This document shows, one piece after another, positions 6,475 to 16,952 of a DNA stretch of 64,000 nt; the first letter of the stretch is position 1, and each line of letters starts with the position of its first letter. Below the pieces are notes generated by a model. It saw only the letters and a list, made by a program, of their open reading frames with translations, did no database searches and was not told where the DNA came from. This DNA comes from Synechococcus sp. Lineage in GTDB: Bacteria; Cyanobacteriota; Cyanobacteriia; PCC-6307; Cyanobiaceae. Made by a program: the position numbers and the translations under genes. The stretch is taken from positions 448,136 through 512,135 of the forward strand of contig JBJBDC010000001.1 in assembly GCA_047285535.1 (NCBI GenBank). The letters run 5' to 3'.

Positions 6475-6702
6475 TCACCCCTCTAGGTGTCCAGTCTGCG
6501 GTGCTCGCCATGAGGCTGCCCAGAGATTGCAGGTTTGGGTGAAGTGTTGCCCCTGCTGGAGAAGTTCCTGCCAGATGTTGCACGCCATCATGATGTGGCA
6601 CTGCTGATTCACGCCATCCCTGACTTGCTGGCAAGCCTCGAAACCACTTGAGCAAGGACAGTTTATGAGTTTCCTCTCGTCCCCATTGCTCCACTCCTCC
6701 AT
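6475..6702 (-). CDS. Small Cys/His-rich picocyanobacterial protein, degenerate paralog of 9003-9233
   Basis: Aligns end to end with 9003-9233 (MEEWS..ER.L.NC.CSS...LLQQGQH.T.TCNLWA); first Cys of the CxxC is lost. Confidence 0.65.
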   Translation of the reverse strand: MEEWSNGDERKLINCPCSSGFEACQQVRDGVNQQCHIMMACNIWQELLQQGQHFTQTCNLWAASWRAPQTGHLEG

Positions 6703-6796
6703 GGCTGCTGGTTAGTAGGCGTGTGTTGACACAAGAGGCGGCAGATGGTTCACCACCAACACAGAAATTGGCTACAGCAGCAGGTTTCTAGGACCC

Positions 6797-6988
6797 TGTG
6801 AGCAAGATCACAGACTTGGGTGATTGCATTAGCGAGTGTGGCTGTGAATTCAGAGAAGCCGATGGAGTCAGGGGCGGGCAGCACAGCCTTGCACTTCGAG
6901 CTTTTCCTCAGAAGATTCAAGTGGTTTGGCTCTAAACAAAGGGAGGAGCCAGCTCTCCTGTTTCGTTCACTTCAAGACACCGATCACC
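6797..6988 (+). repeat. Peptide-gene upstream element, copy 1 (CRP-type box + ~190-nt leader)
   Basis: Starts TGTGA-GCAAGA-TCACA (6797-6812); ends CACTTCAAGACACCGATCACC-ATG; aligns with copies 2-4. Confidence 0.9.
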
Positions 6989-7108
6989 ATGACGGAACAC
7001 ACGGCACAACTGATGGATGAATCTCAAAGGGATTCAGAGCTAATTGATCAAGAGATCTCTTTTCCAGTGCTTTGTGCAGTCTCTGCGGGGTTCAATGGAT
7101 ATCCATGA
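6989..7108 (+). CDS. Double-glycine-type leader peptide with a very short or truncated core (39 aa)
   Basis: MTEHTAQLMDESQRDSELIDQEISFPVLCAVSAG-FNGYP; leader paralogous to 9526 and 13453; likely decaying. Confidence 0.6.
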   Translation: MTEHTAQLMDESQRDSELIDQEISFPVLCAVSAGFNGYP

Positions 7109-7418
7109 AGAGAATTTCTGTATTAAGTATTGAATCGTTTAAAGCCGTTGATGGGTTAGAACATAAGAATGAAGTTATTGCCTAGTCACTACAAGCGATT
7201 GATTCCTCAAGAGGGCATTCAGGGTTGCTGGATGGTGAAATCAAACGGGAGTCCTTGAGTGAGGAATCAGTTGACTGGGTATGAGATTGTCGTACAGCTA
7301 CTGCTTAGGCTACTCCTATACCCATGCCACTGAAATAAGCAATCAAGACATTCATTGATATCAGTGAGTAACAACCCTGCTCCCAATTTGGTTTTATGAT
7401 TACCTCTTGCTGCCATGA

Positions 7419-7913
7419 TTAGGGGACGTCCCCTTCATTGTTGGATTCGTAATAGTCTTGGTGAGAGTTATCAGAAAAATGATGGCTTTTCTGGTATAAC
7501 GTGTATAGGTTTAGAAGATTAGATCTTCTCTCTTCGTGTTCGTTGCTAACCATCAGTTGATCATACTGAGTAATTACATTTTCGTCTAAACTTTCTTCTG
7601 CCCAGGTCATTAGACTCCAGTATTCGTCATACCCTCCTACAAGATCTTGCAGTTGGTCAATGTAGAAATCTGCTCGCTCTCCATCGACAGAATATTCAGA
7701 GCTTAGCTCTGAATATTCTGTCGATAACTCTCCAATCAGTTCGTTTTGTCGAAGCAGCTCTTTCTCTAATTGGTTGAACTCTTGCAGTATCTGTTCCCGT
7801 GAACCAGCCCATTCAATCTGAGTCTTATCGAAATTGATATGCTCAGCCTCGCTCCCGTTATAGAAGGCTTTGGGATTGATTGTAAGTCCGTTGTACCTAT
7901 CCATTGTTGTCAT
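7419..7913 (-). CDS. Acidic coiled-coil hypothetical protein
   Basis: 164-codon ORF; ATG overlaps an upstream TAA (TAATG). Confidence 0.55.
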   Translation of the reverse strand: MTTMDRYNGLTINPKAFYNGSEAEHINFDKTQIEWAGSREQILQEFNQLEKELLRQNELIGELSTEYSELSSEYSVDGERADFYIDQLQDLVGGYDEYWSLMTWAEESLDENVITQYDQLMVSNEHEERRSNLLNLYTLYQKSHHFSDNSHQDYYESNNEGDVP

Positions 7914-9002
7914 TAGCAAAGTTCGTTAGAATCGCTAAGATCCAAAAGTTTTCCTACTTTGGTTCGATAGTGTCTTAGGTGGTAGCCATTCAGCTAAGAG
8001 TTCTGACGCCCTTGATGCATAGAGTTGTCTGAAAGTAATCATACTCAATGACAATCTAGTGCTTTCAATAAACAGCTTGTAGACTAATGAATTAATTATT
8101 GGTGAGAAAGGCCTAATCGCATGCTCATTGACTCCTCACACTATGACTGAAGTGTGACATTAACGCGATGGCAATAATGAAGGAGTTGTCATTTTTATGT
8201 TGGTCATTATCATTAGATTCTGCATGGACATGCCGTATTTAAGGTTTAATTTGGTTTGTGTCCGCCAAGACGACCTGTCGCCGTTGTGGCGTAGTCTTAG
8301 AGGCATTGAAACTTCCAGTAGCAAAAGACTATCAATACTAAAGTCTTCGTCTGAAATTGAGTGTGTTGAATTCATTTTCTATCTGTTCTACAGGACACCT
8401 TTTTACTGCAGACTGATTTTGTGAAGCCTACCTTCCAAAACAACTAACGAGACTGCGTCCTTGCTAACGGCTGAAGGGATTTAACTTCTTACTTCTCCTG
8501 ATGTCCCAGGTCACAATGTTGATAGAGCAGCTGATGTTGCATCAGTTTCCCTGCTCGCAGAGGTATCGCCTCCCAAGCTCCCTTTGAACCAGTAATTAGC
8601 CTTCGGTAGCTTCGTTCTATCGATTTGGTGATTCGTGCTCTCGCTTCAGGTGAGCATCAGGCCAGCAATGGGACCGAGTTCATGTTGAACTACGAGTACG
8701 CTTATCGATCTCTAAGTCATCCGATTCTGATGCAGCTATGTTTGCTGTATCGAGAAAATGAACAGCCTAAAAAAATTTGTCAACGGCAGCAATTCTTAGC
8801 GCGCTCCAACTGAAAGGAGGGAAAAGTCAATCAACCTGGTGGCTAAGGATTGGCTGACCACCGCGAGCGTGCTTTACAAAGCGTCATCATGGCGATAAAA
8901 TAAACAAACGATTTTGAACACGGGATCGTGAACTCCTCTGGGAAGAGGTTCTCATCACATCAGAAGGTCTCTGTGGAAGGAGATCTTTTTTTATGCCTTG
9001 GC

Positions 9003-9233
9003 TCAACCCATTTCGGGTGCCCAGCCTGCGGTGCTTTGCCATGTGGGTGCCCAGAGATTGCAGGTTTTGGTGAGGTGTTGACCCTGCTGGAGAAGTTGCT
9101 GCCTGATGTTGCACCCCACCAGGGTATGGCAATGCTTGTCCACGCCATGCCTGAAGTGCTGGCAAGCCACGCAAACACTCGAGCAACGGCAGTTTTTGAG
9201 TTCCCTCTCGTCCACATAGCTCCACTCCTCCAT
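9003..9233 (-). CDS. Small Cys/His-rich picocyanobacterial hypothetical protein (76 aa, 7 Cys, CVAC)
   Basis: Intact paralog; ends WAPEMG; LexA box directly upstream. Confidence 0.8.
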   Translation of the reverse strand: MEEWSYVDERELKNCRCSSVCVACQHFRHGVDKHCHTLVGCNIRQQLLQQGQHLTKTCNLWAPTWQSTAGWAPEMG

Positions 9234-9245
9234 GATCAGCTCTCA

Positions 9246-9259
9246 AGTACAGATGTACT
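9246..9259. promoter_or_regulatory. Cyanobacterial LexA (SOS) box
   Basis: AGTACAGATGTACT matches the AGTAC-WNW-TGTACT consensus; 12 nt upstream of the 9233 start. Confidence 0.75.
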
Positions 9260-9334
9260 AGCTCGGGAGAGGGCTGGTCGTCAACAAGAACAGCTGAAGC
9301 TGTCCACCATCGCTTAGTTGGTTGCATTGGACTC

Positions 9335-9525
9335 TGTAAGCAAGATCACAGACCTGGGTGATGGCCATCAGCGAGCGAGGCGGTGAGTTCAGAGAAGCTG
9401 AAGGAGTCAGGGGGGCAGCCCAGCGCTGAACTCTCAGCTCTTCCTCAGAAGATTCAAGCGATTTGGATCTACAAAAAGGGAGGAGCCATCCCTTCTGGTT
9501 CGTTCACTTCAAGACACCGATCACC
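9335..9525 (+). repeat. Peptide-gene upstream element, copy 2
   Basis: TGTAA-GCAAGA-TCACA at 9335-9350; colinear with copy 1 up to the ATG. Confidence 0.9.
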
Positions 9526-9720
9526 ATGACTGACATCAACTCAAAAGCGATGGATGAATCACCCGTGGATTCAGAACAGATGGATCAGGAAATCAAGCCG
9601 GAAGACCTGCATGCGATCTCTGGTGGCTGGGGAAGGAGTTGCTATTACAGCTACAGCAACAACCGTTCTGCTAGCTACACCGCTGCATCAAGTGATGACG
9701 GTAGAAACGGTAGAAACTGA
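9526..9720 (+). CDS. Double-glycine leader precursor peptide, Ser/Tyr-rich core (64 aa)
   Basis: ...DQEIKPEDLHAISGG-WGRSCYYSYSNNRSASYTAASSDDGRNGRN; followed by a hairpin. Confidence 0.85.
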   Translation: MTDINSKAMDESPVDSEQMDQEIKPEDLHAISGGWGRSCYYSYSNNRSASYTAASSDDGRNGRN

Positions 9721-9740
9721 CATCTCTGAGTGACCTGACC

Positions 9741-9762
9741 ACCCCGCTACGAGCGGGGTTGT
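9741..9762 (+). terminator. Terminator hairpin after the peptide gene
   Basis: ACCCCGC-TACGA-GCGGGGT followed by TGTT. Confidence 0.6.
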
Positions 9763-9829
9763 TGATTAAAGCCACTGAGCTCCAACAGATTGTGCTGGCC
9801 AAGTAATCAATACCTTCACGATGCTTAGT

Positions 9830-10261
9830 TTAAAAAGGGATCACGATGGACCATCTATTACGTCTGAACCACCAACGATTGCTGCTCACCTCCCGCTTTG
9901 GAACACTTCCAGAGTTGAATCCGTTCGGATCATCAGCTTGGGGGCTAATTTTCGTCGCTCCGTCCAATGGAATCTCGTACCCCACGTAATGGTCACCTTC
10001 TTTCTGACATGACCTCGAAGGATATTGCGAATACGTCGTCCATATGCCAGTTCTCTTCACGGTGTAATTTTCAGCTGATGATGCCCATTGTTGACAAGCC
10101 CTATACGCAGCTTCTGGAGACTCATAGCGGTTCAAACCCTGGACAAAACCGATAAGATTCGGGATTTGGGTAATGACAAGAGCGGCGAGAAGTAACTGGG
10201 TGATTTGAATAGATCTCATCAGCAATATGCAGTCATTAGAAATGGGAGTTACTAAATCCAT
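9830..10261 (-). CDS. Hypothetical membrane-anchored or secreted protein
   Basis: Hydrophobic N-terminal segment; Cys pair; start probably at MRSIQ. Confidence 0.6.
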   Translation of the reverse strand: MDLVTPISNDCILLMRSIQITQLLLAALVITQIPNLIGFVQGLNRYESPEAAYRACQQWASSAENYTVKRTGIWTTYSQYPSRSCQKEGDHYVGYEIPLDGATKISPQADDPNGFNSGSVPKREVSSNRWWFRRNRWSIVIPF

Positions 10262-11159
10262 TACAATGTCAATGAATCCATCGTAAAGACAAAAAGTGTT
10301 TGATTGCTGCCACCATTGATGCGGTAAATCGATGCGTGCTAGATATGATCATTGGCTAATGCGCGTTTCGCTTAGCTTTGCAGAGGGATTAACCTCATTG
10401 CGATAGACAATCTAAGCAAAACATGTTGGTCCAGCTCCTGCCCCAGCGATCCATCTCAATACTTTGAAATCACAGTTGGCAATTCACCCTGAGTCCTATG
10501 AAGGAGTGATGCATGATGATCATCCAAATGTTCATCCATAAGCTTCAACTCAGACAGCTGTTAAGCTCTCGCCGATTCAATCAGGATATCTAAAAAGATC
10601 ACTATAAAGTTTTTAGTCGCTTTTATGAGGATAAAACGGAAGGCCGACTCGTACACTGTTCCCGCTTTAGCGTCAAAATATAATGCAATCAATACCTATG
10701 AATGAACTGTTGAAATAGCGCGAAATTCATATCGTTATAAAGGCGATCCTCAATTCCAGCGCCAAAGGTTAAGAGCAAGGATCGTAATCGCATAACTTTT
10801 AACATGTATATCAATCTTAAGCCAAAAAACATAGAGAGGTATTCTGAGCTAAAAATTAATAAGATGTTGCGTCAATGGCCCTTTCTAATCACAAGGGTTG
10901 ATTGTTTTTAATTCCAGCTGGAACTGGAGATGTGGGCTGTTAAGTCCTGGTAAAAGTAAAGAAGCTACCAGCACGAATTGGCAATCAGATACTGATTTTC
11001 AAAACCATATTGAGGCTTGTAATCGATGGTTCTAGAATAAAGATTATTGTTTTCCAATCGCGTCACATTTGCTGATGCCCAAGGTCATGAGACTTTCTTT
11101 TTCTATCAAATGTTGTTAATACAGGGTCACCCCAAAACAGAAGCCACACTTTTGAAGTC

Positions 11160-11483
11160 ATGAACAACGCTAGTCCTAGACTCTCAATCCAAATTTGGCA
11201 AGGAGTTCAAGGGACCGTCTTGAGTGTGATTCCTGCTGCTTTTCTTCTTGCAGGTCCACCTCCTCCCCCAATGCTTCCTATTGAAATTGAAAAGCCAGTT
11301 CCAAAAGAGCATCCTGGCTTGAAGGTGGAAAATTTCCAATTTGAAATTGATCAGAAAAATTTTAATTGTTCTGCAGGAGAACTGAATTCAGGTAACAAAG
11401 CACCATATGCCTACAGCCCATCAAACGAGTCTTTTGCTGGCGAACTGCAAATTCATGCAGCTCGATGCAAGACACGTTTTTAG
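11160..11483 (+). CDS. Hypothetical protein with a hydrophobic segment and poly-Pro
   Basis: 107-aa ORF containing VLSVIPAAFLLAGPPPPPM. Confidence 0.55.
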   Translation: MNNASPRLSIQIWQGVQGTVLSVIPAAFLLAGPPPPPMLPIEIEKPVPKEHPGLKVENFQFEIDQKNFNCSAGELNSGNKAPYAYSPSNESFAGELQIHAARCKTRF

Positions 11484-11716
11484 ACGAGAGTAGATGAAAA
11501 CATAATCCGCACGTCACACATCACAACAATCTGAGCTATCAGTCCATGAGCTTTCTAGGTCTGAACGTAGGGACTCATAATGTCAACTCTTTACTTGTTA
11601 ATTAACTACCAGATAAGTTGATCGAGGGTACTCTCATCAACATGAACTCCAGAATTGCTTAAGCCAAATGGATAAGCGACACTGAGACCCACAATGATGG
11701 AAATGCAACGAGCAGG

Positions 11717-12401
11717 ATGATCAGTATTCTCGTCGTTATGACCCCGCACGGATAACTCGGAGAGACGGGCTACACCACTGGCTTCTGGTTCGAAGAATTT
11801 GCTGCTCTATATTTCATATTCAATGAAGCAGGAGCAACGATCCCATTCGCATCCCCGCAAGGAGAGTTGCCGACAATCGAACCCAAGAGCAACAGTTTGG
11901 ACACGGAGACAGAAACCATTTGACGGTTCAAGGCTGATTGTTTAGCCGCTCGATCATTCGCCACTAGCGCAAGGCCGTACTTCCTTTCAGCTCATTACTT
12001 TGACGCAGTTTTTAATCCCCGAGGACTCGCTCCTCTATAAGCCTTTGTAGACAGCGAATCATCGATTCAACTGATTGAAGATTTCTGGGCAGATTGCAAG
12101 TCTATCTTCGCTGTATGCCATGCTCCAATCGTTTTCATCATCGCTAAAGATCAGAATGGTGAGCCTATTGTCAAAGGACGAGAAGTGACTGGATTCACCA
12201 ATTCTGAAGCAGAGGCTATAGGCCTCAGCAAAATTGTGCCTCGGCTTCCAGAGCCAACAATGATTGCTAATTAATGGTGCCAAATATTCGAGAGGTAGCG
12301 ACTGGCAGTCTTATACATGCCAAGACGGCAATCTGATTACCGGTCAGAACCCGCGATCATTTGAAGCAGTGGCGAAACTCATACTTCGAGCTCTTGCTTG
12401 A
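11717..12401 (+). pseudogene. DJ-1/PfpI (type 1 glutamine amidotransferase-like) pseudogene
   Basis: MISILVVMTPHG*LGETGYTTGFWFEEFAA...ASPQG...AVCHAP...VTGFTNSE...DGNLITGQNP; several stops and a frameshift. Confidence 0.85.
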
Positions 12402-12632
12402 AATCAGTCTAAAAATGAGCGGGATCCAATGGTCCTCACTGATACCTGACTCCATAGATTCTCTGGTTTCACAAGCCAGCCGATGCCGTCAATCAAGCAG
12501 CTCTGTGATTTGGCTCACAGGATCCCAGACATCAGGCACCATTAAGCGGAGGCAGTTTTAGCGTTACCATGAAAGAAATAGCAAGCAACAAACATTCCCA
12601 ACCTATCGTTAGGACTTTAAGTAATAGAAATA

Positions 12633-12926
12633 TCAGCTCTTTCCAGTAATGGCCCCATTAAAGGGATCTTCTTCATCTTTGAAACCATCAATATAACTGG
12701 TTTTGTTCGATCCATCAGAGTCACAGGAGCCACAGGAGTCAAGATTCTGATCGACCGTTTCAAGTTCTTTGAGAATCTTTTTAGCTCCTTTATAGACCAA
12801 ATAACCAATACCTCCAAGAACGAGGGCTGGCAAAATTGGGACAGCACCACCGTTATATGACGCAAGGTCTTCAAGACTTAACTCTTGATCAACTGAGTCT
12901 TGGTTGAGGGTTGTTGTGTCAATCAT
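12633..12926 (-). CDS. Double-glycine leader peptide with a bacteriocin-like hydrophobic core (97 aa)
   Basis: DQELSLEDLASYNGG-AVPILPALVLGGIGYLVYKGAKKILKEL...CGSC. Confidence 0.75.
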   Translation of the reverse strand: MIDTTTLNQDSVDQELSLEDLASYNGGAVPILPALVLGGIGYLVYKGAKKILKELETVDQNLDSCGSCDSDGSNKTSYIDGFKDEEDPFNGAITGKS

Positions 12927-13015
12927 GGTTTTGAATGTAGTAGAAGTGTTTGACTTCGGCATACACAACATCGCTGAGGTCAATCCGAAATGCGATGATC
13001 CAAATCACTAATCAT

Positions 13016-13031
13016 AGTGATATTGATCACA
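13016..13031. promoter_or_regulatory. CRP-type box upstream of the 12926 peptide gene
   Basis: AGTGA-TATTGA-TCACA, one mismatch to TGTGA-N6-TCACA. Confidence 0.55.
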
Positions 13032-13264
13032 ACATCATCAAAGAAACAATGTCTTGCCCAAAGCTGTACTCTTCTCCTGTGTATTCGAGTTCAAAAGGTA
13101 TAACCTATGAAGAATATTGCCTCAGTTAATGCATCCTAAAGTCGATTAGATTCAATCGATCTACTCAAGGCCTGGTTCGTATTGTTGAAAGAACAAATAC
13201 ATGGGTCAAACACGAATGCAGATGGTTCGAATTATCATTTATCTTGCTTAAAGAGCAGTGTCAA

Positions 13265-13453
13265 TTAACCTGAGTTGTTATTGCTACCAGAGTTCGAGGA
13301 GTAGCTCGCGGATTTGCTACTACTGTAACTGGAATAACAGGACCGACCAAAACCACCGCTAATCCTCTTCAAAGTCTCAGGCTTAATTTCCTCGTCAAGC
13401 TGCGCTGAATCTTCAGGTGTCTCTTCTAGAGATTGTGGTTTGGGTTCGGTCAT
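13265..13453 (-). CDS. Double-glycine leader precursor peptide, Ser/Tyr/Asn-rich core (62 aa)
   Basis: ...DEEIKPETLKRISGG-FGRSCYSSYSSSKSASYSSNSGSNNNSG; paralog of 9526. Confidence 0.85.
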   Translation of the reverse strand: MTEPKPQSLEETPEDSAQLDEEIKPETLKRISGGFGRSCYSSYSSSKSASYSSNSGSNNNSG

Positions 13454-13641
13454 GGTGTTTGGTGTCTTGAAGTGTTGGAACCAAAAGAGATGGCCACTCC
13501 CTCTTTAGACCCAAATGGCCTTAGTCTTCTGAGGAAACGATGAGAAATCAGCTCTTTGCTGTACTTCTGAATCCAACAGACTGAACGGATGTGACGGCCA
13601 TACGTGATTCGTGATGATGTTGCTCTGTGATTTTGAATACA
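13454..13641 (-). repeat. Peptide-gene upstream element, copy 3
   Basis: Box TGTAT-TCAAAA-TCACA on minus (13626-13641); shared TTCCTCAGAAGA and CACTTCAAGACACC blocks. Confidence 0.8.
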
Positions 13642-14043
13642 GAGGACAGAATCAGTACAATCGAGAATTTCCGCATTGTCGCTCCGTTAACAGACAATAG
13701 GGTGTGCTATGAATAACCACAGAGCTTTCAATAGGACCCAGTGGTGTAACGAGCAAACAGTCCAGGCTTGATCACAGATCGTTGTTAGTTAGGGGAAGAT
13801 AGGTTTAATCGAGAGATTCGACGCTGTCCAGAACACGGCAAATTCCACTTCGACAACGAATGACATCACATCGTATGATCTTAGTAGTACTTGTCTGACT
13901 ATCAGATAAAGCAAGGTTTGTGGTGACTTCAATTACTCAGGCCAACATAAAATACCGATACTTTGATGATGATTCAGCTGTGCTAAGGGGATAAAAATGG
14001 ATTAGTGAAACTCATTGAACCGCAAATAGCCAATACTTGATCT

Positions 14044-15660
14044 CTAACAAGGATTAGGGTTGGTCTCCATAAATGATGCTAACCAAGGGAATCTCTTCTG
14101 TCGTTCTGATAGGGAACAGAGGGTATGCCAGATAAGGCGATTAGATCCAGGAAGTCCATTGTCAATAATAACATCATCATCAACTACCAAAAGGAATGAA
14201 CTTGAAGAGTCATTGTTTAACAACATACTCCATTCAAAAATACCTTTTGGGAACAGAACACTACCGGAGTTTTGGCGAACTTTGATTGATAGTGATTCAA
14301 AGAAGGATGTAAAGTTTTTATTTTCATCGAAAACCTCATCAGCGTGAATAATCCCAATATCCAAGTCACCTTGACAGCTCCAGAAATCTTCAATAGCAGA
14401 AAGCTCCTCTTTAATCTCTCGTTCGATAACCGACTTGGGATCGTTAAGGTAACCAAAGCCACATGGTATATTCATTTCTAAAATCACACCAGAATCAATT
14501 AATTTTGAGTCTTCATTCTTTAGTATTAGATCTATTCCACAGCTAGGGAACCCTAATGTAGCAAGCATGGACTCAATAGTCTTCACATCGTCCTCATGAA
14601 TCATGGATGACTCCACAAGATGTAATGTTGATGCACTTATCGCTGGAGAAAGAGGAATCGATTTTCCCTTCTCGGGAATACACACGTTCAAATCCGTTAA
14701 GGAATAAACCTCATAGCCAATCGTCCGCTTTAGAAGTTTTTCTCTTAAATGTGTATTAGTCTCGATTTCGTTCATTAGTTGTGGATATTTATCGTGAATC
14801 AGCTTGCCTAGGCTTGAACAACCGTCACCAGTAACTGATTTAGGTTTCCCCCTCCATACTGAGTGGAGCTTACCATTACTAAAATAAACTCGATATTCAC
14901 AACCTTTTACTTCCTCCTCAATAATATATTGATCCATATGACCACCCAAGTTTCTGAGTGCGTGTGTCAATTGCTCTGATGTCTGAATACCAATAAAGAC
15001 CTTTTCAGAATTCGAAGATGTAGGCGACTTGACGACAATTGGCCCCTTCAAGGTTGAGGCTACCTCGTGAGCCATATCATATCCCCAAACTGTTGCTCCA
15101 TCCGCTACAGGTAATCCGAAAGACTTAAGATACGATCTACAAACCGATTTATTTGTGCCAACTAACGAAGAAATACAATTGGATGATGGTCTCATATTCA
15201 TTATAAATAATCTTGCATATCGACCAAAACCCATCATCGTATAAGGAAATGAGCCTAGAAATCCACACGTAACAGGGATTTTATTTTTCTTGCAAAAGTA
15301 GTAATGGATTCCAAAGGTGGCTTCAAAGAGTTCCTTATTGGCCTGAGCCTGATTGACTTTGATAACCTCTGCAGGTGTCAGGCACTCATTAACAATTAAA
15401 TGACAAAGTGTATCTATGTCTAGAAAGTGTGAAAGCTTGCAATAAGCATGTGTGATGCCATCAAAAGAATCACCGAAATGAAGGGAAGATACAAGATTGT
15501 TGTCCGAAAAAATAAGCCATTTGTTATTCAGCTCATCCTCTACACACCCCTTTATCCAAAAATGAGCAATCTGTGATCCTGGAACAAAAGATCTCGATTT
15601 GTGGTAACAACTTTTGATGACTCTACAACGAGGTTGGGAATCCATATTGTTTATTGGCAA
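14044..15660 (-). CDS. Stand-alone ATP-grasp ligase, cyanophycin synthetase/GshF-like
   Basis: NKSVCRSYLKSFGLPVADG, GPIVVK, YIIEEEVKGCEYRV, VTGDGCSSLGKLI, CGIDLI and VILEMN follow the CphA/GshF ATP-grasp motif order; no intact Mur-ligase domain. Confidence 0.85.
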   Translation of the reverse strand: MPINNMDSQPRCRVIKSCYHKSRSFVPGSQIAHFWIKGCVEDELNNKWLIFSDNNLVSSLHFGDSFDGITHAYCKLSHFLDIDTLCHLIVNECLTPAEVIKVNQAQANKELFEATFGIHYYFCKKNKIPVTCGFLGSFPYTMMGFGRYARLFIMNMRPSSNCISSLVGTNKSVCRSYLKSFGLPVADGATVWGYDMAHEVASTLKGPIVVKSPTSSNSEKVFIGIQTSEQLTHALRNLGGHMDQYIIEEEVKGCEYRVYFSNGKLHSVWRGKPKSVTGDGCSSLGKLIHDKYPQLMNEIETNTHLREKLLKRTIGYEVYSLTDLNVCIPEKGKSIPLSPAISASTLHLVESSMIHEDDVKTIESMLATLGFPSCGIDLILKNEDSKLIDSGVILEMNIPCGFGYLNDPKSVIEREIKEELSAIEDFWSCQGDLDIGIIHADEVFDENKNFTSFFESLSIKVRQNSGSVLFPKGIFEWSMLLNNDSSSSFLLVVDDDVIIDNGLPGSNRLIWHTLCSLSERQKRFPWLASFMETNPNPC

Positions 15661-15671
15661 AAGGAATAAAA

Positions 15672-15925
15672 TTAGCTAGGGCAGCACATCAAGCCTGTAT
15701 CACTTGAAGCTGTGCAATTATCGTTACCTTTTAGTTTAGAATCTTTTGATGGCTCAAACTTGTTCGTTTGAAACTGTATTCATGAGCCTTGAAACTCTTT
15801 TCGATACAATTCTTGCTAGTTGCAGACCGCTTAAATTGACCTCCAGAAGCACTATAATCAATTTCTTTTAACAGCTCATTATTGGCTTCGCTGTGAGCTT
15901 CTTCTCTGCTGTCAAAAGTGGACAT
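15672..15925 (-). pseudogene. Frameshifted (or mis-sequenced) GG-leader precursor, paralog of 16490-16765
   Basis: 254 nt, one short of 85 codons; adding one T at 15771-15773 gives ...SASGG-QFKRSATSKNCIEKSFKAHEYSFQTNKFEPSKDSKLKGNDNCTASSDTGLMCCPS. Confidence 0.85.
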
Positions 15926-15967
15926 GACGACTAGACTGTATCAACTAATTAGATTTCTAGCCAATCA

Positions 15968-16357
15968 ATGTTGCAAGCCAACAGAAACTTAACAACTTTT
16001 CAATCATCTATGCCATTCTCAAACTTTCCAGAAATAGATTGTAGCTTGATGCTTTTAAAATTCACTGATGATAGTTGTGGATTATGCTATAAAATGGCTC
16101 ATTTTGACAGTGTAGTGGCCAATAAAATGAGCATCGATATGGTGGAAATTAAAACCAGCTCTAAGGAGTTTGAGCATTATCGTGAGTTGTTTTATTCTTT
16201 TTTCCAAGATTCAGAAGTTGCCGGCTGGCCAACATATATTTTAGTTCGCATCGATGGAGAAAAAGGTATGCCCTTAGGTGTAATCAAGGGAGCATTGCCT
16301 AAGAAAGAGTTTCGAGAAGGTCTAGCCTCCTTTCTTTCCGAGAATCAACTTGAATAA
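15968..16357 (+). CDS. Thioredoxin-family protein (CGLC)
   Basis: LLKFTDDSCGLCYKM...GWPTYILV...KGALPKKEFRE; true start may be 16010 or 16049. Confidence 0.85.
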   Translation: MLQANRNLTTFQSSMPFSNFPEIDCSLMLLKFTDDSCGLCYKMAHFDSVVANKMSIDMVEIKTSSKEFEHYRELFYSFFQDSEVAGWPTYILVRIDGEKGMPLGVIKGALPKKEFREGLASFLSENQLE

Positions 16358-16417
16358 CAAGCCATTACCATAGACACCTTGTAAACCATAAATGGCTTAG
16401 CTGGCTGATAACAGCTA

Positions 16418-16456
16418 TATTGACCCCCATCGATTGATAGTTGATGGGGATCAATA
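16418..16456. terminator. Hairpin between convergent thioredoxin and precursor genes
   Basis: TATTGACCCCCATC...GATGGGGATCAATA inverted repeat. Confidence 0.55.
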
Positions 16457-16489
16457 GAGACTCTTATATTAATTCGATTAAAGTTAAAA

Positions 16490-16765
16490 TTATCCAGGGC
16501 AGCCCATCACTCCAGTATCACTTGTCGCAGTGCAATTATCACCTGCTAGTTCGCGGATTTTAGAAGGATCAAACTTATCGATTTGAAGCTCTAATTCCCT
16601 AGTTTTAAAACTTCTAGCACGAAAAGACTGGCTCGGAGCCATAGGTTTGAAATTGCCTCCTGATAAGCTAGAAAGCTCACTTAAGGTTTCCGAATTAATT
16701 TCTTTGTCTATTTGCTCTGAAGCCTCTGGAGATTGATCAAAGGCTTGTGAGTTGATTTTAGTCAT
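16490..16765 (-). CDS. Double-glycine leader precursor with a C-terminal C-X10-C motif (91 aa)
   Basis: ...DKEINSETLSELSSLSGG-NFKP...DNCTATSDTGVMGCPG. Confidence 0.85.
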   Translation of the reverse strand: MTKINSQAFDQSPEASEQIDKEINSETLSELSSLSGGNFKPMAPSQSFRARSFKTRELELQIDKFDPSKIRELAGDNCTATSDTGVMGCPG

Positions 16766-16952
16766 GGTGTTCAGTATGTGAAGTTAAAAAATCAGAAGGG
16801 ATGGCTGCTACCCGTTGCGGACACAATTGGTTGAGTCTGTTTCGGAAGTGCTGAGAATCAGCGCTGTCCTTTCCCCCTGACTCCCTCAGTTTGTCTGGAT
16901 TCACTCGTCCTACCGATGATCTCTGTCACGTTGGACTGTGATCCTGCTCACA
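16766..16952 (-). repeat. Peptide-gene upstream element, copy 4
   Basis: Perfect TGTGA-GCAGGA-TCACA (16937-16952); shares GGAGTCAGGGG...CAGCGCTGA and AGCCATCCCTTCTG with copy 2. Confidence 0.85.

Follow-up and report, generated by a model that had tools for sequence, protein, structure and literature searches.

The stretch of DNA analyzed here (the window) comprises 64,000 nucleotides (nt) of a Synechococcus sp. genome (assembly GCA_047285535.1, contig JBJBDC010000001.1, positions 448,136 to 512,135, forward strand). Between positions 6,797 and 16,952, it carries four copies of a non-coding element of about 190 nt, each located upstream of a short open reading frame (ORF) for a peptide with a double-glycine (GG) leader. 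These copies, here named c1 to c4 (6797-6988 and 9335-9525, plus strand; 13454-13641 and 16766-16952, minus strand), are colinear over their whole length, from the opening box to the ATG, as proposed in a first-pass annotation made from the sequence alone, and each opens with a TGTGA-N6-TCACA-like box, 187-192 nt 5' of the start codon. The element consists of two layers, a promoter module of about 72 nt and then a predicted 5' untranslated region (UTR) of about 120 nt, which gives the following features.

6797-6866 (+): c1 promoter module; box 1 at 6797-6812, box 2 at 6819-6834, -10-like GAAGCC at 6855-6860; start predicted from geometry at about 6867
6867-6988 (+): c1 predicted 5'UTR, about 122 nt
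6989-7108 (+): c1 ORF, 39 amino acids (aa); acidic leader ending in SAG and a 5-residue core, FNGYP; likely degenerate
9335-9405 (+): c2 promoter module; box 1 at 9335-9350, box 2 at 9357-9372, -10-like GAAGCT at 9394-9399; predicted start 9406
9406-9525 (+): c2 predicted 5'UTR, 120 nt, constrained
9526-9720 (+): c2 ORF, 64 aa; 34-aa GG leader and WGRSCYYSYSNNRSASY... core; near-identical ORF copies at genome coordinates 89221 (+, gA) and 274395 (-, gB)
9741-9759 (+): terminator-like hairpin after c2, a member of a repeated family
13572-13641 (-): c3 promoter module, degenerate; box 1 at 13626-13641 with 2 mismatches, box 2 only a half site
13454-13571 (-): c3 predicted 5'UTR
13265-13453 (-): c3 ORF, 62 aa; GG leader and FGRSCYSSYSSSKSASY... 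core, a homologue of that in c2
16882-16952 (-): c4 promoter module; box 1 at 16937-16952, box 2 at 16915-16930, -10-like CAAACT at 16888-16893; predicted start 16881
16766-16881 (-): c4 predicted 5'UTR
16490-16765 (-): c4 ORF, 91 aa; GG leader and an unrelated 54-aa core ending in NCTATSDTGVMGCPG

A search of the 3.03-Mb genome with nhmmer, using a model built from the four window copies, yields six full-length copies, namely these four, gA (genome 89030, +) and gB (genome 274586, -), and BLAST also counts six. Several further nhmmer matches are partial and cover just the first 60-77 model positions. Element segments of the window copies are 58-100% identical to one another, versus 43-61% for their upstream flanks, which is near the random baseline (mean 48%, 95th percentile 54%). 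A leader ORF follows every one of the six copies, as the first-pass reading requires, one of these leaders ending in SAG. One metatranscriptome contig of 151 nt spans 9490-9632, but as it is single and its share of the run is small, it does not prove that the gene is expressed. Read contigs of runs X2 and X3 showed a loose end at 9593, which was not reproduced on focused comparison, and the reads revealed no new core.

The acidic leaders end in a motif resembling E-x-x-x-x-x-L-x-x-I-S-G-G, the kind of motif by which double-glycine leaders are defined, with SGG in c2, c3, gA, gB, and c4, and SAG in c1. The genome also contains the C39 peptidase ABC exporter that double-glycine export calls for (five PF03412 matches), and a TIGR03796 exporter scoring above the cut-off is found 2.7 kb past the window end.

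Behind the leaders, each copy had been thought to carry a different core, with similarity largely stopping at the GG. The c2 and c3 cores, nevertheless, match at 12 of their first 18 residues, 8 of these 12 being kept via synonymous changes. Between these two copies, the proportion of nonsynonymous differences (pN) is 0.25 in the core and 0.28 in the leader, against proportions of synonymous differences (pS) of 0.75 and 0.76, and synonymous sites are saturated. Examined copy by copy, identity across the GG junction shows no break for c2/c3, nor for c1, whose DNA identity with c2 is already at baseline past codon 23, 11 codons ahead of the AG; c1 is likely a decayed copy. The expected break is seen for c4 only, which is 70-73% identical to c2, gA, and gB before the GG and 43-47% after it.

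The distinct family sequences number 30, six of which are this genome's own; the 24 outside alleles are known from their peptide sequences. They comprise 23 WGR-type and 2 FGR-type sequences, 3 long c4-type ones, c1, and the allele P0009. A WGR/FGR-type core is thus present in 4 of the 6 genomic copies and in 21 of the 24 alleles from other sources, and the motif [WF]GR..Y.S.....SASY in 25 of the 30 sequences. Across the 25 W/FGR cores, 8 of the first 17 core residues are invariant. This dominant core is rich in Ser and Tyr; a Cys occurs in 23 of the 25, and is, hence, not invariant. Kept in several copies, the dominant core is conserved and evolves under purifying selection, which speaks against the unrelated cores and prochlorosin-like diversification suggested initially.

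Could the element nevertheless be a portable promoter-UTR-leader cassette, systematically sampling unrelated cores as in prochlorosin and CCRG-2 diversification? The GG break of c4 agrees with this idea, as do two outside alleles. Over residues 1-23, P0011 has 20 of 23 residues as in c2 and 12 of 23 as in c4, while its remainder is of the c4 type, which suggests a crossover or conversion product formed near codon 23. P0009 combines a c2-type leader (29 of 34 residues) with a different-looking core; this core can, however, still be aligned as [YW]G..(.)CY.S.SS.R, and is, therefore, probably homologous to the dominant one. In the genome G092, CCRG-2-like genes (L024, L036, L038, L040, and L042) have upstream DNA and leaders in common, with varied cores behind them. 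Against this stand the single core kept under purifying selection in most genomic copies and outside alleles, and the fact that only two clear core types and one stub were found. What survives of the cassette is its anatomy and some exchange of cargo (c4, P0011), but not the portability of the full 190 nt, since the part common to unrelated cargo is the first ~72 nt only, that is, the promoter. Systematic core sampling is thus largely refuted and quite unlikely: core exchange appears to occur, but rarely, and one conserved core dominates the family. As four of six copies retain one core, the copies resemble a duplicated family of signal-like peptides rather than a core-shuffling machine.

Duplication is most visible in the three young copies c2, gA, and gB, which sit at distant loci, encode near-identical peptides, and share DNA that is about 93% identical from the promoter box through the terminator hairpin. 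This hairpin has 28 matches in the genome, compared to 2 for the reversed control, and several of them sit 38-85 nt 5' of another promoter module. Upstream of the element, c1 and c2 have a further stretch of about 310 nt in common. It is part of a block of 300-370 nt, found three times directly 5' of promoter modules (6475-6796, 8931-9334, and, just ahead of the window, genome 447053-447480), with minus-strand ORFs of about 75 aa that have no Pfam or NCBIfam match. Duplication, together with conversion between repeated promoters and terminators, would be the simplest route to such an arrangement. Dispersed copies with 93% identity and sharp ends, one of which (gA) is located about 190 nt from tRNA-Ala, could also be expected of a selfish, non-autonomous mobile element of the MITE (miniature inverted-repeat transposable element) type with a passenger ORF. 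Yet the copy ends carry neither terminal repeats nor target duplications (the longest direct or inverted matches being 5-7 nt), no Y1/TnpA-REP transposase was found in the genome (other transposase families were not searched), the ends correspond to a promoter and a terminator, and the ORFs are under purifying selection, all of which makes such an element very improbable.

Elsewhere in the genome, identical CCRG-2-type gene pairs with their promoter are found at distant loci (444191/1661336 and 1620435/1669101), repeating the whole-gene duplication pattern of c2/gA/gB. In G092, L024 and L042 have the same terminator motif upstream. A near-perfect 43-nt palindrome lies at 7683-7725 in the window.

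The promoter module contains two CRP-type boxes 22 bp apart, followed, 21 nt after box 2, by a GAnnnT hexamer. Exact TGTGA-N6-TCACA sites occur 22 times in the genome, versus 0-7 times for each of nine other spacer lengths. Around 104 near-exact boxes (208 orientations), a second box is found at offset 22 in 26 cases, and at other offsets in 1-11. Among these 26 tandem sites, which include near-duplicates and do not include c3, A61 is present in 24, T65 in 22, and a purine at position 72 in 25. If positions 60-65 are read as the -10 box, transcription would start at +72, and the two boxes would fall at -63.5 (box 1) and -41.5 (box 2). In class II CRP promoters, the site is centred at about -41.5. 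The module geometry fits this class (box 2 predicted at about -41.5, a -10 some 22 bp further downstream, and a crp gene in the genome), and the predicted start coincides with the end of the partial nhmmer matches. A sigma-70 scan returned fewer sites than in shuffles. The spacing also fits that of ~22 bp between CRP box and -10 given in the available text of PMC2633013. As in the SyCRP1-type promoters described there, TGTGA-N6-TCACA is followed about 22 bp downstream by a -10-like box in a genome with crp; in contrast to them, two boxes are present here, and the -10, GAnnnT and often GATGGT, follows the weaker box 2.

Most of the 29 module sites listed are 5' of proteins that, as judged by eye, begin with a signal-like N-terminus or a GG leader. 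Of 46 genus genomes, 34 show the tandem pattern, against 0 for the reversed control. Among near-complete genomes, it is found in 20 of 22 crp-positive ones (mean 6.9 tandem sites) versus 4 of 11 crp-negative ones (mean 0.7). Box 1 is also located 5' of GG-leader genes at 4 of 16 inspected family loci. The CRP of this genome carries an R-E-T-x-x-R helix. At a distance of 2.7-15 kb beyond the window end, its gene is accompanied by those of an NHLP-type C39/HlyD/ABC exporter and of a CHASE2-cyclase. This cluster (L056, genome 510922-527563) comprises the NHLP export trio, the CHASE2-adenylate/guanylate cyclase, a CHAT protein, a ShlB-type transporter, and crp, with a tandem-CRP module at 521014 (-). 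Three identical units of 686 bp stand in tandem at genome 2029777-2031149; each consists of a promoter module and a 150-aa secreted-type ORF, and comparable tandem modules are present in the genomes G009, G015, and G028. Two more modules occur in the window.

12633-13031 (-): promoter module and 34-nt UTR, box 1 at 13016-13031; drives an unrelated 97-aa GG-leader peptide (12633-12926)
12445-12519 (-): orphan promoter module, no ORF of at least 35 aa behind it

The 97-aa peptide begins with a hydrophobic segment like that of class IIb bacteriocins (TIGR03949 at E 0.003, which is below cut-off). The orphan antisense module faces a DJ-1/PfpI-like pseudogene with several stops (11720-12400, +; named by eye).

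Unlike the promoter, the remainder of the element (116-121 nt) is confined to the six peptide genes. Its p-distance is 0.14-0.37 versus 0.46-0.86 at synonymous sites (Fisher p 1e-7 to 0.02 in five of six pairs, 0.55 in one), and it is better conserved than the promoter spacer in pairs with c3 or c4. At the level of sequence comparison, this constraint is real. It does not reflect coding, since indels of 1-2 nt disrupt any shared frame. The constraint, together with the shorter UTRs of most other module genes (8-61 nt by the first-ATG rule), would suit a structured cis-regulatory RNA, either a switch or an attenuator, as the main reason for the conservation of the element, all the more as a helix linking the UTR 5' end with the 3' third is pairable in 97% of cells and c1 has a flagged competing hairpin ahead of a U-rich stretch. 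The folding energy is, however, no better than that of shuffles (z from -1.07 to +0.81 in five copies), and covariation, measured on a post hoc structure with only four independent sequences, does not rise above them (103/500 to 368/500). No match was found in Rfam, and a covariance model gave none in 45 genus genomes, while those it gave in the family (6 in 149, E 0.02-0.05) do not exceed chance level. The structured-RNA explanation is, therefore, doubtful.

Past c4, an opposite-strand thioredoxin-like ORF is followed by two features, and then by c3.

15672-15925 (-): second precursor of the c4 type, lacking the element; in this genome with a frameshift near 15777
14044-15660 (-): ATP-grasp protein of 538 aa, most similar in fold to cyanophycin synthetase; might modify c4-type cores

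At the frameshift site, a read contig from run X2 contains one additional base. The ATP-grasp protein has 26 relatives at E<=1e-30 and a confident structure model; its family is of about 530 aa, with about 20 near-full-length distant relatives, and a search of the family genomes returned only partial matches, to proteins of 600-680 aa.

These neighbors raise the question of whether the peptides are precursors of peptides that are made by the ribosome and modified after translation (RiPPs), altered before export by the ATP-grasp enzyme (c4-type cores) or by a distant LanM or YcaO (WGR cores). Both c4-type precursors share NCTA[TS]SDTG[VL]M.CP and are upstream of the ATP-grasp gene on its strand, the cores are rich in Ser/Thr, and LanM-type (DUF4135) and YcaO genes are present in the genome, the DUF4135 match being 1.37 Mb away. 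The ATP-grasp protein, however, resembles cyanophycin synthetase and not graspetide/RimK enzymes, the core Cys varies, and no recognizable modifying enzyme was seen among the ORFs inspected by eye at the gA and gB loci. Such modification, which is compatible with a secreted, duplicated peptide family, is thus possible, if on the unlikely side. C39 transporter, YcaO, and LanM-type genes are clustered at genome 1820737-1834242, where the DUF4135 open frame is of 805 aa, which is short for a LanM. Overall, the gene content, with its SLH/OprB porin, CCRG-2, and Nif11 matches, suggests a marine picocyanobacterium.

Comparison with known systems places the family among picocyanobacterial double-glycine peptides in its behavior, yet, by profile search, outside both families to which it might have belonged. 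The leaders have no match to the CCRG-2 model NF033456 at E<=10 (cut-off 24), while two genes of this genome, used as positive controls, reach 29.5 and 38.8 bits; nor do they match the Nif11 model (PF07862), which has 11 matches elsewhere in the genome. CCRG-2 peptides are described as small and secreted, with a motif of 13 aa that ends in Gly-Gly (PMC8120280; comparison based on the available text of this source and of PMC5974335). Like them, the family has a short acidic double-glycine leader and is multicopy in marine picocyanobacteria, and the CCRG-2 genes of this genome follow the promoter module seen here and resemble the family in their CA-rich start region. The leader is, however, of 34-37 aa here versus ~17, the UTR of ~120 nt versus 34-37, and the dominant core is conserved. 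Prochlorosin precursors are described, in the available parts of PMC10783134 and bioRxiv 2020.03.09.984088, as having a hypervariable core behind a conserved leader. With these Nif11-type ProcA precursors, the family shares a conserved leader ending in GG, multiple copies, and a LanM-type gene in the genome, but it differs by the lack of a Nif11 match, of hypervariable cores, and of TnpA-REP.

In 60 relative genomes, with at most 10 candidates scored per genome, the element DNA gave only two short weak matches (24-32 nt). Its exact 24-nt pattern is absent from the metagenome and viral contigs searched, and the element has no match in phages or plasmids. A peptide-alignment search of metagenomes and genomes confirmed nothing, although very close genomes may fall outside it, and a peptide profile gave weak leader-only matches in 9 of 400 family and 1 of 45 genus genomes, none with the UTR. 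ESM Atlas returned unnamed clusters only, at 0.90 or below, and weak Pfam matches (YjbT, TcdB_midN, PARP, DUF808; E>0.02) were judged to be noise. Literature searches found no description of the peptide family or of the tandem-CRP promoter, although the supplements of PMC2633013 may list some of the sites. The GG-peptide family is, thus, likely new: restricted to one lineage and probably controlled by CRP, it combines a core that is conserved with a long UTR under constraint.

Taken together, these data favor, with a probability of roughly 0.68, a six-copy, lineage-specific double-glycine peptide family, likely controlled by CRP, with whole-gene duplication and conversion as its mode of spread. 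Through binding at about -41.5 and -63.5, cAMP-CRP would activate transcription from about element position +72, and a C39 exporter would cut after the GG and secrete the core as a signal-like peptide. Copies would spread and homogenize as repeated promoters and repeated terminators undergo duplication and gene conversion among themselves, occasional crossovers within the leader would join a different core (c4 type) to this front end, and multiple copies would raise the dose of one peptide. Several points weigh against this interpretation. The -10 starts with G, unlike the TAN3T described for cyanobacterial CRP promoters. The tandem pattern is absent from 2 crp-positive genomes and present in 4 crp-negative ones, and kin are not independent. 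The co-occurrence of exporter and promoter is one of genomic proximity only, in a genome with five C39 matches. The recombination route is drawn from one chimera and shared flanks, and the "signal-like" label from conservation and copy number.

Double-glycine peptides of picocyanobacteria are noted for having hypervariable cores with no assigned function, and the family described here represents the opposite regime. As one core is kept over many copies, it offers a tractable candidate for a defined signal, with exact predictions for start sites, CRP sites, and the mature peptide sequence. More speculatively, and with rather low likelihood, the conserved, secreted multicopy peptide could be a cAMP-CRP-induced, lineage-specific quorum or kin signal between cells of an open-ocean picocyanobacterium, its 120-nt UTR could add another level of control as a new cis-regulatory RNA, and the same front end could drive a precursor for an uncharacterized cyanophycin-synthetase-like peptide ligase. 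Beyond this family, the genus-wide tandem-CRP promoter points to a cAMP-controlled secretion regulon.

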